This document shows, one piece after another, positions 12,001 through 18,000 of a stretch of DNA of 64,000 nucleotides. The stretch's first letter is position 1, and every line of letters starts with the position of its first letter. Made by a program: the position numbers. This DNA comes from a plasmid: NCBI RefSeq assembly GCF_057098645.1, contig NZ_JBXSPU010000002.1, one strand, 5' to 3'.

Positions 12001-15000
12001 CCGCCCTCCTCCATCGAATGCACCAAATCCCCATCCGGGCCCGTAGTAACGTGTCGCAGACACGTTGGGCAGCGGTGAGTCTCTCCTGGTAAAATTGGCC
12101 ACGAAAGATGTCCATCGCTATTAAGCGCAATTTTCAATAAAGGATGCTGTCTTGTCATCGCGGTCACCCCCTGCTTTTCGTCTTTTGAGGTTTCTGGTTT
12201 TGCTGGCGCCACTCCCAGGGGGCAACGGGATTAGGATCTACCCAGAGGCCTTTAACTGCTTTCTGAGCTGAAGCTTCGAATTTCAGATAGTTTGGGACGA
12301 TGGCATTACCGTCAAACCGGTATACCCATGCATAGCCGCTGTCTACCATTGAGGCGTTTATGTCATAACCATCAAGCCAAATGGTTCCCAGCATCCTGCC
12401 GTAAATATCAGGTCCGTGGTCTATTACCGTAATATTCTGTGCAGCAATCGCGGCGCTCAACGCTTGTTTAGACTTTTGTCCAAAGGCCTGCTTACTTTCG
12501 GGGGCATCAATACCGTACAAGCGGATTTTGATGCTTGTATTCTGACCATCGAGCGCGGTGATTGTGTCCCCGTCGATAATTTTTACCACTTTCGCTTCAA
12601 ATGACGATTGGGCAGCCAGAGTTGCCGCCGGGAAAAGGACGATTAATGTCGGCAAAAGTAACTTTTTCAACAGAGTCATACGTTCTCCCTGAATTAGATG
12701 GTTCGTAGTAACAAATAAGTCGTGTGATTTGACGCGCTTATTGTACCAATTAGAAACTCGGCGATTTTCCGTTAACGGAGGCAATTTGAGTGGATTAAAA
12801 ATTTTAATTCAGGAGATGAAAATAAAGGCCTTTAACAAAAAATTGAATTTTCACCGCGTGGTAGTCTGAGGTCCTAAATTAATCACATTTCATGGAGTAA
12901 GGATGTACAACGATAGAACTGATCCTGCAATAACAGCATTGCTTAATGATGAGACGCCTTCCTCTATCCATAAATTACTGGTGCAGGTTGCAAGTATCTA
13001 TGACGTAAAAGATTTGGCTGCGCAACTTAATGCTGCAACCGGCAGCGACTGGTCGAGGGCATCACTTATTCGCCAGATCAAAGGTTCAGTTAATGAATGT
13101 CGAATAACCCAGGAAGAATATCATTATCTTCGATCGTTGCTCCCCTCACGCCCAGCAGACTATGACCAGAAATTTTTCCGTTTTATTGACTTGTTTGCTG
13201 GGATCGGTGGCCTCCGGAGTGGTTTTGACGCCATTGGCGGGAAATGCGTGTTTACAAGCGAATGGAATCAGTTCTCCCGCCGGACATACAGTGCAAACTG
13301 GTACTGTGACGAGACTGAGCACTATTTCAACTCAGATATCCGGGACATTACACTCAGTAATCTTCCCGATGTTTCGGATGACCAGGCCTATGCTTCTATC
13401 GATGCATCCATCCCAGACCATGATGTTTTGCTCGCAGGTTTCCCATGCCAACCGTTCAGTATTGCCGGTGTCAGCAAAAAGAACTCTTTGGGCCGAAAAC
13501 ACGGCTTTGAATGCGACACCCAGGGGACCCTTTTTTTTGATGTCGCCCGGATCATCCGAGCCAAACAGCCTGCCATTTTCGTTCTTGAGAACGTAAAAAA
13601 TCTGAAGAGCCACGATAAGGGAAATACGTTCCGCATCATCATGAAAGCGCTTGATGAACTTGGCTACGATGTTGCCGACTGCGATGCTCACGGATCAAAG
13701 GACCCCAAAATAATTGACGGTAAGAACTTCAGGCCTCAGCACCGGGAACGTATCGTGTTGGTTGGATTCAGGCGCGATCTGAAGCTCCATGATGGCTTTT
13801 CGTTAAGTGGTGTATCGGCTCTTTATCCTTCACGACGGCCAACCCTTGGGGAGCTGCTGGACGCTGAGGTCGATAGCCGTTACATCCTTTCTCCAAAGCT
13901 CTGGGAGTACCTTTATAACTACGCTAAAAAGCACCAGGCAAAAGGTAATGGATTTGGCTTCGGACTGGTAAATCCACTTGATAAATCAGTTGTTTGCAGA
14001 ACACTCAGCGCACGGTACTATCGTGATGGCTCTGAAATTTTGCTAGACCGTGGATGGGATCACAGCATAGGCGAAAAGGACTTTAATGATCCTGTAAATA
14101 TGGCAAGGCGCCCGCGCCGTTTAACCCCGCGAGAATGTGCCCGCCTTATGGGATTCGAGCAACCGGGAAAAGTTACTTTTCGCATTCCAGTCTCTGATAC
14201 CCAGGCCTATCGCCAGTTCGGCAATTCGGTCATCGTCGACGTATTTGCGGCCGTGGCCAGTTTGCTTCGAAGCCGTATTGAGATCGCCGTTGCGGCTCGT
14301 CTCAAGGGAGAGTTTGAAGCGGCATCATAGTAATTCTTCTGTGTGATTTTGCAGGTTAACGTAATGGTTTATTTCACTAATATTGTAACTTTTACACAGA
14401 AAAAAACCTGGGCAGGGAGAGAAAGGCCTGCTTCAGTCAACTCCTTCATCAGGAGGTAATGATGACGTATTTTGATTCAGCAGAAGACCTCACCATTTCA
14501 AAACAGAGAGCTCTGCAAGAGCTTGCAAAACATGGCGTCGTAGCCAGCGACATAGACGTATTTTTTTCCGAGTTGGGTGAGAGGGAAGAGTACAACGCGC
14601 AAGAAGTATTGATATGGCTAGGCTATTAGTATTTTTAAATTTCAGGAGGTCCCATGGGCCAGAAGTTTGCAGTTTTTATTGCTTACGATGACGAACCAAA
14701 CACGAAACGATACTCGGCTGAATTTCAGACACAGGATGAGTATGTAAAGGGATGGCAGTCGGCCCTGAAGAAAGCACACCACACGTCCGGGCAGAAATCT
14801 GTGATCAGCTGCGGATGTCGGGGAAAAGGCGCAAAGCGTCTCTACGTCCGCTCACTACCAAACAGTGATACGTTCATCCTGATTAAGGCTGCAAATACAG
14901 GCACTGAGCATGATCCATCGTGTGTGTTTTTCGACCTTGATGCCAGGCATACAGGGTTAAAGGGTTATGCCAGCAATGTTGTACGCATCAACAATGAGGG

Positions 15001-18000
15001 GACCATGTCAATCCGCCTTGGAATAGGCATGACGGAGAAAGATCCGCCGGAAAAGTCTGAGGTTCCTTCCCTGCCCCAAATCCAGCGACCTGAAGGTGGC
15101 CAGGCTTCAATGACCCTCTCCGGACTTCTGAGTTTGTTGTGGACTGAAGCCGGTCTTAATGTCTGGTATCCGAATATGGCCGGGAAGCGAAATGATTCGC
15201 TGGTTCGATACCGGATGTTGGAAGCCGCAAAGCAGATTAGATCGGGTAGAGCATGTATTGGCGACCATCTTTTTATCGGGGTGGCGGACTCTAAAAGCAA
15301 AGTGGCCAGTGAGCAGGTTCAACTGCTGTCGTCGGCGGAACTGAGCGACAAACGACTGCTGCTGCTATCAGTACTGCCGCGCTATGACGCAGAAAAGCAT
15401 GAGAAGCCGCTGAAGTTTCTACCTATGCGTAACTTCGGCGGTATGCCCCTTACCTTCTTTAACTCAGACGGGCACTGGGATAGCGTGAAGCGGCGATTCC
15501 CTCTGGAATATGCCGCCTGGAAAAATGGGGGCAAAGTTGTTGTTTTTGCTCTTACATCTCCCGTATCGGTGACCAGTAGAGGTATCTCTGCACGAGCTCA
15601 TCAGATAGTGCTTATGCTGGTGAGTGATAACTGGATACCTCTGGACTCCTCCTACGAAGCGATAGTGTCCCGTAAACTTGATGCCGAACACCGGCACTAT
15701 GTTAAGCCTATGCGGTATGACGCCAGTGCGAGCGATGTTTTCCCAGATTTTTATTTACTGGATACACGAAGTGATAAGCCGTTCCCGATGGAAGTTTTCG
15801 GGATGTCGACACCTGCCTATCTTGCGCGAAAGGAACTTAAGAAGGCGTATTACAACCAGGAATATGGGGCCTATGGATGGTGGCACTGGGATGCTACGGA
15901 GAAGACTGAATACCAGGAACTCCCTCATTTCCCGGAAGCTAGACGATAAAATTAACCCGAATCACAACCTTAAAATTGGGCTAAAAATGGCGTACATACT
16001 TTCGATGAGTGAGCAGGTTAAACTGAAGGCGTTTTTGGCGGCAGTACTCGATGACTACAAACTGGGAGCTATTTCACAACAGCAAGCTGTTGGCGGGATC
16101 ACTAGCCTGGTTGATGCTATTGAGATCAGTGATTCGGGGAAAATCAGCCTAATGCTGTCGGAAGGACGTAAACTCCTGCGAACGGGATAAAGAGCCTGTG
16201 GACGCCAGGAATTTAAGTCTATTGCAAATTCCTGGCGGGAGCAGTTATGTCGTCTTTTTGTTTCGCGGTTTTGATGCCCCAGAGGATTTAGGTTTGATGG
16301 CAACTGCGCCGGTCATAGCTTCGGTAAGCTGCTTGATTGTTCCTCGTAAAGACTCGGCAATGGTCTTTTCCGCATTGAGTGTCGCTTCCATGGAAATCAT
16401 CTGATTCCTGAGCTGTTGAAGCTCTTCTGTCTGATCTGTTTGCACTTTTTTGGCAACCAGGCTCTCATCAGCTAAGCGTTGTGCTTCAGCTCGTAGTTGG
16501 TCATTCTCCCCTTTAGCTGTTGAGAGCTCCGACCGCACGAGCGTCAGGGTCGTGTCCTTTTCGGCTAAAGATGAGCTCAATTCAGAGGAATGGGTCTGTA
16601 CTGAGGAAAGGTCCTGTTCAAGCTGACTGACACTGACTTTTAAATCAGACACGGTCCGTTGTAAGTGATCATTCTGGCTTTTGAGGGCTGTCAGCTCTAC
16701 CTGCTGCGCTTTATTCTCATCATTCAGCTGCTTCTGATACTCCTGCTGCGAGGCCAGTTCCTGTTTGCGCTCACTCAGTTGCTGGTTCAGTGTCCCTACT
16801 GTCTGCTGTAAAAGCTGGATCTCGTTTTGGGCATGCTGTAATTCACTTTGAGTTCCTGCCAGAGTTTCTTCTGCTTCCTGAAGTGAATCTTCTAATTTAC
16901 TGGAGAGTTCACGCTGCTGCTCCAGCAGGTTAATCAGGTTAACTTTTTCGTTATTCAGGACTGTAGCCTGTTCTTTCGACTGTGACAGTTCTTCCAGAAT
17001 CTCAGCATTCCGCTGCCGTAACTGAGTAATTTCTGCCTTCGCAATTTTCACGCTATCACTCTGGATAGCCGTATAGCTTAAGCGGAAGTACCAGGTGATA
17101 AACGCAGTAAAATCACTGAATGCATCTTTAATCTGGTCAGGGATTTCAATCGCGCGTGCTTCCTCGGGCACCTCGTCCACGTATTGCTTGTAGGCCGCCA
17201 GCATCTCCTGAGCCCTGGCAAAAGACCCCCCCATTTTATCCCGCAGCCAGTGGGCTTTGAAAAACTGGTCGAGGTTTTCGGTGCTGATGCTCTTATCGAG
17301 GCAGATTTGTTCAATCTCGGTGAAATATTTAACCTTAGCTATTGACGAGTAAGGGGAATTCTTCAGTAACTCGGGGCTTAGAGGGGGCGTTTTTGAAGTC
17401 TCTTCACTTAAACTGGACGCAGTTTGTTCATCCCCGTTCATCAAATTTACATTGTCAGTCATCATTCTTATCCTTTGGCCGGGATCTGGTTGGCAAAATA
17501 AATGCTAATCAGGTCATTCAGTGCGTTATGCAGGCTTTCACACTCAACTGAGATATGGACGTTACCATTTCCGAACAATCGGAACTTCCAGCCCTTCGGG
17601 TCGGTAATGTCACCCGTGAAATCGGTTTTCCGTAAGACAGCAAGCCGATCGTACATGTTCATTCCACTGCCGACAGGCGGTGTTGCTGCATTGGAGCAGA
17701 TGCAAACGACATTCTCAAAGTCGTTTAAATAGAAGAGATTATCCTGAGAAAAGCCATTATATCTCATCATGTTCGAGTCGGGAAAAATGCCGCGTAGTAC
17801 CAGTTTTTTTGGCATCACAAATTGCTAGGCATTAGTTTTATACCGGCGATCAAGCTGGCATAGCAGATCAACAAACCCTTCAGCAAGCGTAATGCTGCGC
17901 ATGGCAACTGCCTGGCGCAATGTACTGCGGATTACGGTTAACGACGCAATTGGCGGAGCGTTCCGGAGAGACTCACGGAACTCCGCCCGCTGGTTGTGAT

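Follow-up and report, generated by a model that had tools for sequence, protein, structure and literature searches.

The chromosomal DNA methyltransferase Dcm was reportedly found by Takahashi and colleagues in 2002 to protect the genome from attack by the EcoRII restriction-modification (R-M) gene complex. On plasmids, orphan methylases are among the most enriched functions of leading regions (Samuel & Burstein 2024, PMC11541004). Here we describe a Dcm-like methylase gene and the three genes that follow it on the same strand, at 12903-16190 in a 64,000-nucleotide stretch of plasmid DNA (contig NZ_JBXSPU010000002.1 of RefSeq assembly GCF_057098645.1; the whole stretch is called the window below). 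The downstream open reading frames (ORFs) encode proteins of 55, 431 and 67 amino acids, the longest of which belongs to the family DUF1173. An earlier note on this DNA had described an orphan methyltransferase in an operon with possible partner proteins. The reading that we favor, with reasonable though far from full confidence, is a block of separately evolving establishment or counter-defense genes that includes an anti-restriction orphan methylase, and not a methylase-effector system.

The 3.7-kb segment that holds the block is 100% identical in nucleotide sequence to many IncHI1-type plasmids, with matches in 286 plasmid records. In R27 of Salmonella Typhi, DUF1173 is identical over 431 residues and the methylase is 98% identical. 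These matches agree with the earlier assignment to a conjugative IncHI plasmid, and the segment is a conserved, long-annotated piece of the IncHI1/IncHI2 (R27-type) backbone, an ordinary locus in that respect. Tra1 ends (at trhG) ~20 kb upstream of the block in an identical plasmid with full annotation.

All four ORFs were recovered at the place indicated in the earlier note, and the two AGGAGG ribosome-binding sites that it mentioned were located ahead of the 55-amino-acid ORF and the DUF1173 gene (Table 1). The methylase gene has a GGAG site, and the last ORF has no clear one. We place the start of the 55-amino-acid protein at the second ATG because its spacing to AGGAGG is better; RefSeq uses the same start. 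The gaps between the four ORFs are 131, 24 and 37 nucleotides. Compared with a 93%-identical Citrobacter plasmid, the ratios of nonsynonymous to synonymous substitution rates (dN/dS) are 0.13 for the methylase, 0.08 for the 55-amino-acid gene, 0.07 for DUF1173 and 0.05 for the 67-amino-acid gene, and the IncHI2 counterparts are 71%, 61%, 80% and 60% identical in amino acid sequence, respectively. The low ratios together with the IncHI2 counterparts argue that all four ORFs are real genes under purifying selection. In the window, the DUF1173 gene ends at a TAA codon (15947-15949), whereas a tyrosine codon, TAC, stands there in R27, IncHI2 and the Citrobacter variant, so the protein has 431 instead of 439 amino acids and the gap to the next ORF widens from 13 to 37 nucleotides. 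The final eight residues of the 439-amino-acid form (R27) are unconserved across the family.

The methylase falls within the Dcm subfamily (NCBIfam NF007772/PRK10458; 849.2 bits against a cut-off of 710, residues 17-470) and contains the Pfam domains DNA_methylase (PF00145) and, at its N-terminus, DNA_meth_N (PF18284). The colinearity with E. coli Dcm that had been noted is borne out by 65% identity over residues 18-466 with no internal gaps. Identity to M.EcoRII is 67%, and a three-way alignment of these proteins is likewise free of internal gaps. The catalytic motifs FxGxG, PCQ, ENV, QxRxR and GN (as QFGNSV) are all present in order. In particular, the recognition region (residues 281-400) is 60-82% identical to Dcm and M.EcoRII, and because both of these enzymes act on CCWGG, the same specificity, with methylation of the inner cytosine, is likely here. 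The best PADLOC model for the protein is ‘orphan methyltransferase’. Within 12903-16190 there are 12 CCWGG sites, and a CCTGG site at 14407-14411 lies just past the hairpin in the gap between methylase and 55-amino-acid genes, ahead of the latter.

A tblastn search of the whole window with E. coli Vsr gave a best E value of 1.7, and no vsr gene overlaps or follows the methylase gene, as the earlier note had stated. An ORF at 14137-14346, which overlaps the 3′ end of the methylase gene, bears no resemblance to Vsr. No EcoRII endonuclease was found in the window either (tblastn with R.EcoRII, best E = 3.8). Within the window, the methylase is an orphan. The anti-restriction reading that the note had attached to such an enzyme fits a Dcm-like gene with neither vsr nor a cognate endonuclease. 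A plasmid-borne vsr is not needed, because the enterobacterial hosts already encode Vsr.

In the plasmid collection, Dcm-family methylases occur on 3,917 plasmid records and EcoRII-type endonucleases on 2,600, in the same hosts. Outside IncHI1/2, the methylases that we examined (on an E. coli plasmid and a Klebsiella IncHI1B/FIB plasmid) are paired with a convergent endonuclease gene directly downstream, so the orphan copies are essentially the ~1,400 of IncHI1/2. The Klebsiella variicola IncHI1B/FIB plasmid pKPN1481-1 has, at a different position, a complete EcoRII-like R-M pair (L034, 4917-7624) whose Dcm-family methylase is 71% identical. One methylase family serves two different uses within related backbones. 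A Nat Commun 2025 paper on dcm and tet(X4) was set aside, as it deals with chromosomal dcm.

The downstream ORFs had been proposed as partners of the methylase, for example as a modification-dependent effector, and this proposal did not hold, since each of the three genes occurs independently of dcm elsewhere, the kind of evidence that the note itself had named as a refutation. The 431-amino-acid protein matches DUF1173 (Pfam PF06666; E = 1.4e-42, residues 25-413 of 431). By tblastn, this family is present on 3,353 of 72,556 plasmids (~4.6%), mostly conjugative, in hosts that range from Enterobacterales to Acinetobacter, Burkholderia, Pseudomonas, Rhizobium and Acetobacter. Its contexts were sampled by tblastn of the plasmid collection and by individual look-ups, a moderate rather than exhaustive sample. 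The trio of methylase, small ORF and DUF1173 is kept where DUF1173 is at least 52% identical, that is, in IncHI1, IncHI2 and two metagenome lineages. At DUF1173 identities of 41% or less, none of the 17 sampled loci, which include Acinetobacter, Burkholderia, Pseudomonas, Rhizobium-group and Acetobacter plasmids, has a Dcm-like gene or a homologue of the 55-amino-acid protein within 5-8 kb. Related Klebsiella MOBH/MPF_F plasmids that share the backbone (L017, L018) have the thermonuclease and DUF1173 genes adjoining and directly divergent, with nothing between them, and psiA 3 kb downstream.

Other DUF1173 genes adjoin ArdR and UmuDC in a Pseudomonas plasmid, a primase and a giant methylase in Mesorhizobium, and elsewhere ParA, a zeta toxin with rep, or a MobF relaxase region. 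Unrelated plasmids repeatedly have nucleoid proteins of the H-NS, HU or MucR type encoded near DUF1173 (L017, L018, L022, L030, L033). Some distant DUF1173 genes stand beside helicase genes, either XPB-like (ResIII/ERCC3_RAD25_C) with XPD-like or UvrD-like (Table 1). The XPB type was seen only in one distant metagenome locus (L010), and no helicase gene lies near DUF1173 in the window or in the IncHI relatives.

The 55-amino-acid protein is strongly acidic (isoelectric point 4.25, net charge -7) and has a conserved C-terminus, ...AQxVLxWLGY. It belongs to phrog_25588 (E = 3.8e-29, residues 2-56 against positions 1-53 of the 53-position profile) and has no match in Pfam or NCBIfam. Eight residues are invariant among 37 sequences of the family, and an AlphaFold2 model shows a compact alpha/beta fold with a predicted local distance difference test score (pLDDT) of 89. 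Pectobacterium phages of the Autographiviridae encode a homologue, gp02, as the first forward gene at their left end, and another is among the small early genes of an Ounavirinae phage. Further homologues are found in MOBF plasmids of Cereibacter and Burkholderia. At the phage and MOBF-plasmid sites examined, methylase and DUF1173 are both absent. The protein is from an early phage/plasmid family and probably acts by inhibiting some function of the host. On three independent metagenomic phage contigs, the gene of this family comes directly after a gene of the GP88 family (PF17338) or one small ORF later (Table 1), and this gene pair may be conserved in large phages.

The 67-amino-acid gene is present on 1,836 plasmids and is conserved in IncHI1 and IncHI2. 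Its product has no match in Pfam, NCBIfam, PHROG or PADLOC. Klebsiella IncF/R plasmids carry a 45%-identical homologue beside a resolvase gene and ParAB, with neither methylase nor DUF1173. As all three downstream genes are found without the methylase, each behaves as an independent module. None of the three proteins has an NCBIfam match, and none matches a defense system in PADLOC, the sole exception being a marginal nuclease-domain match to PDC-S68 (E = 0.003).

Published transcriptome data for R27 (PMC7366339, Tables S3/S4) provide a second line of evidence. Expression in wild-type R27 at 25 °C and 37 °C, followed by the ratio of transfer-derepressed drR27 to R27 at 25 °C, was 692, 242 and 15.6-fold for R0153; 1714, 362 and 11.1-fold for R0154, the methylase; 2598, 2588 and 4.6-fold for R0155; 2652, 2527 and 4.3-fold for R0156; 194, 289 and 11.8-fold for R0157; and 2355, 3819 and 1.3-fold for R0158 (tlpA) (PMC7366339). 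With R0151 and R0152 up 13.5- and 16.3-fold, the R0151-R0157 block as a whole rises 4-16-fold in drR27, and tlpA does not (PMC7366339). The methylase is 4.7-fold higher at 25 °C, the transfer-permissive temperature, and at 37 °C R0155 and R0156 stand 7-fold above it (PMC7366339). These two genes run in parallel in all four conditions (2598/2652, 2588/2527, 12025/11395 and 3135/2478; PMC7366339). The values indicate that the 55-amino-acid and DUF1173 genes act as one unit with an extra constitutive promoter, that the methylase and the divergent thermonuclease gene are thermoregulated like tra genes, and that derepression of transfer acts on the entire block.

The operon proposed in the earlier note therefore stands only in part: the genes form a same-strand cluster and the block is co-induced in drR27, but the methylase profile differs from that of the next two genes in R27. 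The small ORF of relatives begins 12 nucleotides after the methylase stop or overlaps it by 4, which argues for ancestral co-transcription. A consensus scan of 12600-16500 returned no sigma-70 promoter, so the promoter implied by the R27 data ahead of the 55-amino-acid gene was not located; the scan also gave no plus-strand terminator inside the cluster. The 131-nucleotide gap contains a hairpin (Table 1), and the RNA fold of 14331-14461 has an energy of -33.4 kcal/mol (z = -2.0). Operator and processing site are both possible roles for this hairpin, which does not have the form of a canonical terminator. No Rfam match was found in 12000-17000.

These data bear on the idea that the downstream proteins form, with the methylase, a modification-dependent effector that attacks marked or unmarked DNA for exclusion or addiction. 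The same-strand cluster with its short gaps, the adjacency kept throughout the IncHI clade, and the 4-nucleotide overlap or 12-nucleotide gap of relatives would all suit such a system. However, every one of the three genes is found alone elsewhere, expression in R27 is uncoupled from the methylase, and no defense-system model matches, so that we consider an effector very unlikely.

A methylase that mainly regulates plasmid or host genes epigenetically, instead of serving in anti-restriction, is somewhat easier to envisage. The DNA_meth_N domain plays a role in the self-regulation of M.EcoRII, and the IncHI methylase carries this domain at its N-terminus. The gene itself is regulated by temperature and with transfer, and CCWGG is not avoided in the window (139 sites against ~112 expected). 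The chromosomal Dcm of the usual hosts methylates the same sites, however, and would mask a regulatory switch, which makes this explanation improbable overall.

DUF1173 shows features of an active enzyme. A zinc motif, CxC...Hx3-5C, described previously (PMC3045609), consists here of C53, C55, H86 and C90, which are invariant in 145 homologues; among the same sequences, E335, K351, D365, D370, E380 and K396 are at least 90% conserved. The AlphaFold model (pLDDT 94) contains an alpha-beta-beta-beta-alpha-beta core, with helix 333-344, strands 366-368 and 377-382, helix 387-404 and strand 410-413. In a profile search of PDB sequences, the segment VFPDF..LLD...PMEVFG...EYLARKAEK aligns with residues 297-336 of the archaeal nuclease AfBax1 (E = 1.5, not significant alone), with D365 on D305 and E380 on E318. 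The metal-binding triad of Bax1 is E275/D305/E318, and a D305A substitution lowers cleavage (PMC7293015). E335 precedes D365 by 30 residues, as E275 precedes D305 in Bax1, and by this spacing only we infer that E335 is the counterpart of E275. Both proteins have a hydrophobic residue in place of the lysine of the classical (D/E)xK motif.

A Foldseek search with the DUF1173 model returned no significant match in the PDB and only other DUF1173 proteins in AFDB50, and a search with the aligned 40-residue fragment yielded no Bax1 homologues that could be used to compare profiles. The closest relatives of DUF1173 in structure appear to be structure-specific or repair nucleases and not restriction enzymes. 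Given the conserved E-D-E triad and the zinc site, DUF1173 is probably an active structure-specific nuclease of a PD-(D/E)XK, Bax1/VRR-Nuc-like type, with an added zinc and single-strand-binding module. New here are the invariance of the zinc site and the predicted active site, in which two triad residues align with those of Bax1.

If DUF1173 is a nuclease, it might be the CCWGG endonuclease of a Type II R-M pair with the methylase. The acidic triad conserved in its PD-(D/E)XK-type domain, its place downstream of the methylase on the same strand, and the retention of the trio in IncHI1, IncHI2 and two metagenome lineages could be taken in this sense. Yet all 17 of the more distant loci (17/17) have DUF1173 without a Dcm-like methylase, and the Klebsiella relatives hold it in the same backbone slot without one. 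In addition, expression of DUF1173 in R27 is 7-fold above that of the methylase at 37 °C, its closest structural relatives appear to be structure-specific or repair nucleases, and no PADLOC R-M model matches. We regard an R-M pair as the least probable of the explanations weighed here.

DUF1173 could also stand in for Vsr, nicking the T:G mismatches that arise at CCWGG by deamination of 5-methylcytosine and thereby repairing damage due to the plasmid methylase. The structure of Vsr holds a zinc site, and a PDF motif lies on the catalytic strand in both proteins; hhalign matches the DSSYE helix and the PDF strand of DUF1173 to the equivalent elements of Vsr, and in IncHI plasmids the gene follows a dcm homologue. 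The hhalign probability is only ~1%, though, and DUF1173 is not a Vsr orthologue. It is nearly three times as large as Vsr, with additional domains; C5 methylase genes are missing from the surroundings of most DUF1173 genes, and the hosts supply Vsr themselves. A substitute for Vsr is thus highly improbable. It is the comparative data that make the R-M, Vsr-substitute and effector explanations unlikely.

We propose the following model for the block of separate establishment and counter-defense genes. The methylase would be switched on with the transfer genes, and plasmid DNA would leave any donor CCWGG-methylated, whether the donor has dcm or not. The transferred strand would then yield hemimethylated, EcoRII-resistant DNA in recipients. 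In this way the methylase may neutralize EcoRII addiction modules, and host Vsr would handle deamination. The 55-amino-acid and DUF1173 genes would be transcribed largely from their own temperature-independent promoter, and DUF1173 would probably cut branched DNA, or junctions of single- and double-stranded DNA, as the plasmid enters, replicates or is repaired. The 67-amino-acid gene would be another independent small backbone gene.

Several points weigh against this model. E. coli, Salmonella and Klebsiella carry chromosomal dcm, so only dcm-minus donors or hosts would benefit. Both the CCWGG specificity and the protective effect are predictions. The origin of transfer (oriT) lies outside the 64-kb window, which leaves a leading-side position of the block conjectural; hallmarks of leading regions do accompany DUF1173 in relatives, namely psiA in Klebsiella, ArdR in Pseudomonas, and the primase and giant methylase in Mesorhizobium. 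The methylase, 55-amino-acid and DUF1173 genes have remained neighbors in lineages with DUF1173 identities as low as 52%, and this retained adjacency, with overlapping or abutting genes in relatives, means that the methylase and the 55-amino-acid protein may be functionally coupled. R0155-R0157 were mapped to the ORFs by gene order alone, between R0154 (cytosine methylase) and R0158 (tlpA). Finally, a 2010 analysis regarded the DUF1173 family as lacking an active-site signature (PMC3045609), probably because a hydrophobic residue replaces the (D/E)xK lysine.

A further idea, which we put forward tentatively and hold to be rather doubtful, is that the 55-amino-acid protein and DUF1173 represent an early-entry function common to plasmids and phages. 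The small protein would inhibit a host defense or repair factor, and DUF1173 would cut junctions on the incoming strand or intermediates of host defense. If true, this would add a new class to the nucleases that serve plasmids in establishment or counter-defense.

Table 1. Positions of the genes and signals of the block, and of selected loci carrying homologues of its downstream genes
Feature	Sequence	Positions	Strand	Remarks
Thermonuclease (SNase)	window	12164-12679	-	signal-peptide-like N-terminus; RefSeq annotation, PHROG endonuclease matches
Dcm/M.EcoRII-family C5 methyltransferase, 475 amino acids	window	12903-14330	+	R0154 of R27
Hairpin with 10-bp outer stem	window	14337-14401	+	in the 131-nucleotide gap between methylase and 55-amino-acid genes
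AGGAGG ribosome-binding site, 55-amino-acid ORF	window	14451-14456	+	5 nucleotides ahead of ATG 14462
Small acidic ORF	window	14459/14462-14629	+	56 amino acids from first ATG, 55 from second; R0155 by gene order
AGGAGG ribosome-binding site, DUF1173 gene	window	14644-14649	+	4 nucleotides ahead of ATG 14654
DUF1173 protein, 431 amino acids	window	14654-15949	+	R0156 by gene order
67-amino-acid ORF, function unassigned	window	15987-16190	+	R0157 by gene order
55-amino-acid family gene with GP88-family neighbor	L036	4045-4931		metagenomic phage contig
55-amino-acid family gene with GP88-family neighbor	L038	4061-5165		metagenomic phage contig
55-amino-acid family gene with GP88-family neighbor	L039	4288-5174		metagenomic phage contig
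Distant DUF1173 locus with helicases	L010	6001-11945		
Distant DUF1173 locus with helicases	L007	3564-7278		
Distant DUF1173 locus with helicases	L008	3723-10184		

Divergent from the methylase, the genes at 10400-12679 (minus strand) encode the thermonuclease, a 307-amino-acid hypothetical protein and a PLD-family nuclease. Gene order suggests that they correspond to R0153-R0151, and the thermonuclease gene, the conserved left-hand neighbor of DUF1173 where the methylase is missing, is probably R0153 of R27. Thermonuclease and PLD genes recur beside DUF1173 in Klebsiella, Acinetobacter and Burkholderia plasmids. The other flank holds a gene for a TlpA-like coiled-coil protein, a DUF4942 pseudogene, DUF6884 and a paralogue of H-NS, the last at 19986-20390 (plus strand), 4 kb downstream of the block. 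The pseudogene (17468-18334, minus strand) consists of ORFs of 116 and 169 amino acids, the halves of a DUF4942 gene split by an internal stop, and RefSeq annotates a pseudogene in an identical plasmid. DUF4942 is intact in IncHI2, in the Citrobacter variant and in metagenome relatives, always paired with the gene for a 400-amino-acid coiled-coil (TlpA-like) protein. Farther upstream, a 1,111-amino-acid ORF annotated as hypothetical (1062-4397, plus strand) lies between UmuDC-like genes and the block.

In Salmonella, E. coli and Enterobacter, multidrug, mcr-1 and tet(X4) resistance has major carriers in the IncHI1 and IncHI2 plasmids. Protection by the methylase against the very common plasmid-borne EcoRII systems, if it exists, would help explain the broad spread of these plasmids and offer experiments a simple target. 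The remaining interest of the locus lies in two widespread uncharacterized families, DUF1173 and the early protein of 55 amino acids shared by phages and plasmids. For DUF1173, which occurs on over 3,000 sequenced plasmids, the complete nuclease triad makes a testable enzyme of an uncharacterized protein.

Parts of the block can be compared with described systems. The methylase matches Dcm of the E. coli dcm-vsr pair in N-terminal domain and motif order and aligns with it colinearly at 65% identity (60-68% in the recognition region), but it lacks vsr, is plasmid-borne and is regulated with conjugation genes. It shares 67% identity with M.EcoRII and an overlapping host range with the EcoRII R-M systems of IncN, IncHI1B and other plasmids, whereas the endonuclease gene that is convergent and immediately downstream there has no counterpart in this window. 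The orphan methyltransferases of plasmid leading regions (PMC11541004) are alike in being on conjugative plasmids and induced with transfer, and in clustering with nucleases, an H-NS-like gene and, in relatives, genes of the psiA/ArdR type; many of them, however, are large multi-domain adenine enzymes, and the enzyme here is a C5 methylase of the Dcm type.

The early-gene slot of the T7 genome is occupied by gene 0.3, which encodes Ocr. Like Ocr, the 55-amino-acid protein is small and strongly acidic, and its phage homologue is the first early forward gene, in a slot comparable to that of gene 0.3. There is no sequence relationship between the two, however, and 55 amino acids is far below the size of known DNA mimics. 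DUF1173 in turn is comparable to archaeal Bax1 (DUF790) and VRR-Nuc proteins, with a sequence similarity that is not significant (E = 1.5), and Bax1 lacks equivalents of the N-terminal zinc domain and the middle domain of DUF1173. Bax1 is archaeal and has the helicase XPB as its partner, whereas DUF1173 is bacterial and plasmid-borne, with no adjoining helicase in IncHI; the helicase-nuclease pairing of XPB and Bax1 is nevertheless echoed in the distant neighborhoods where DUF1173 and helicase genes stand side by side.

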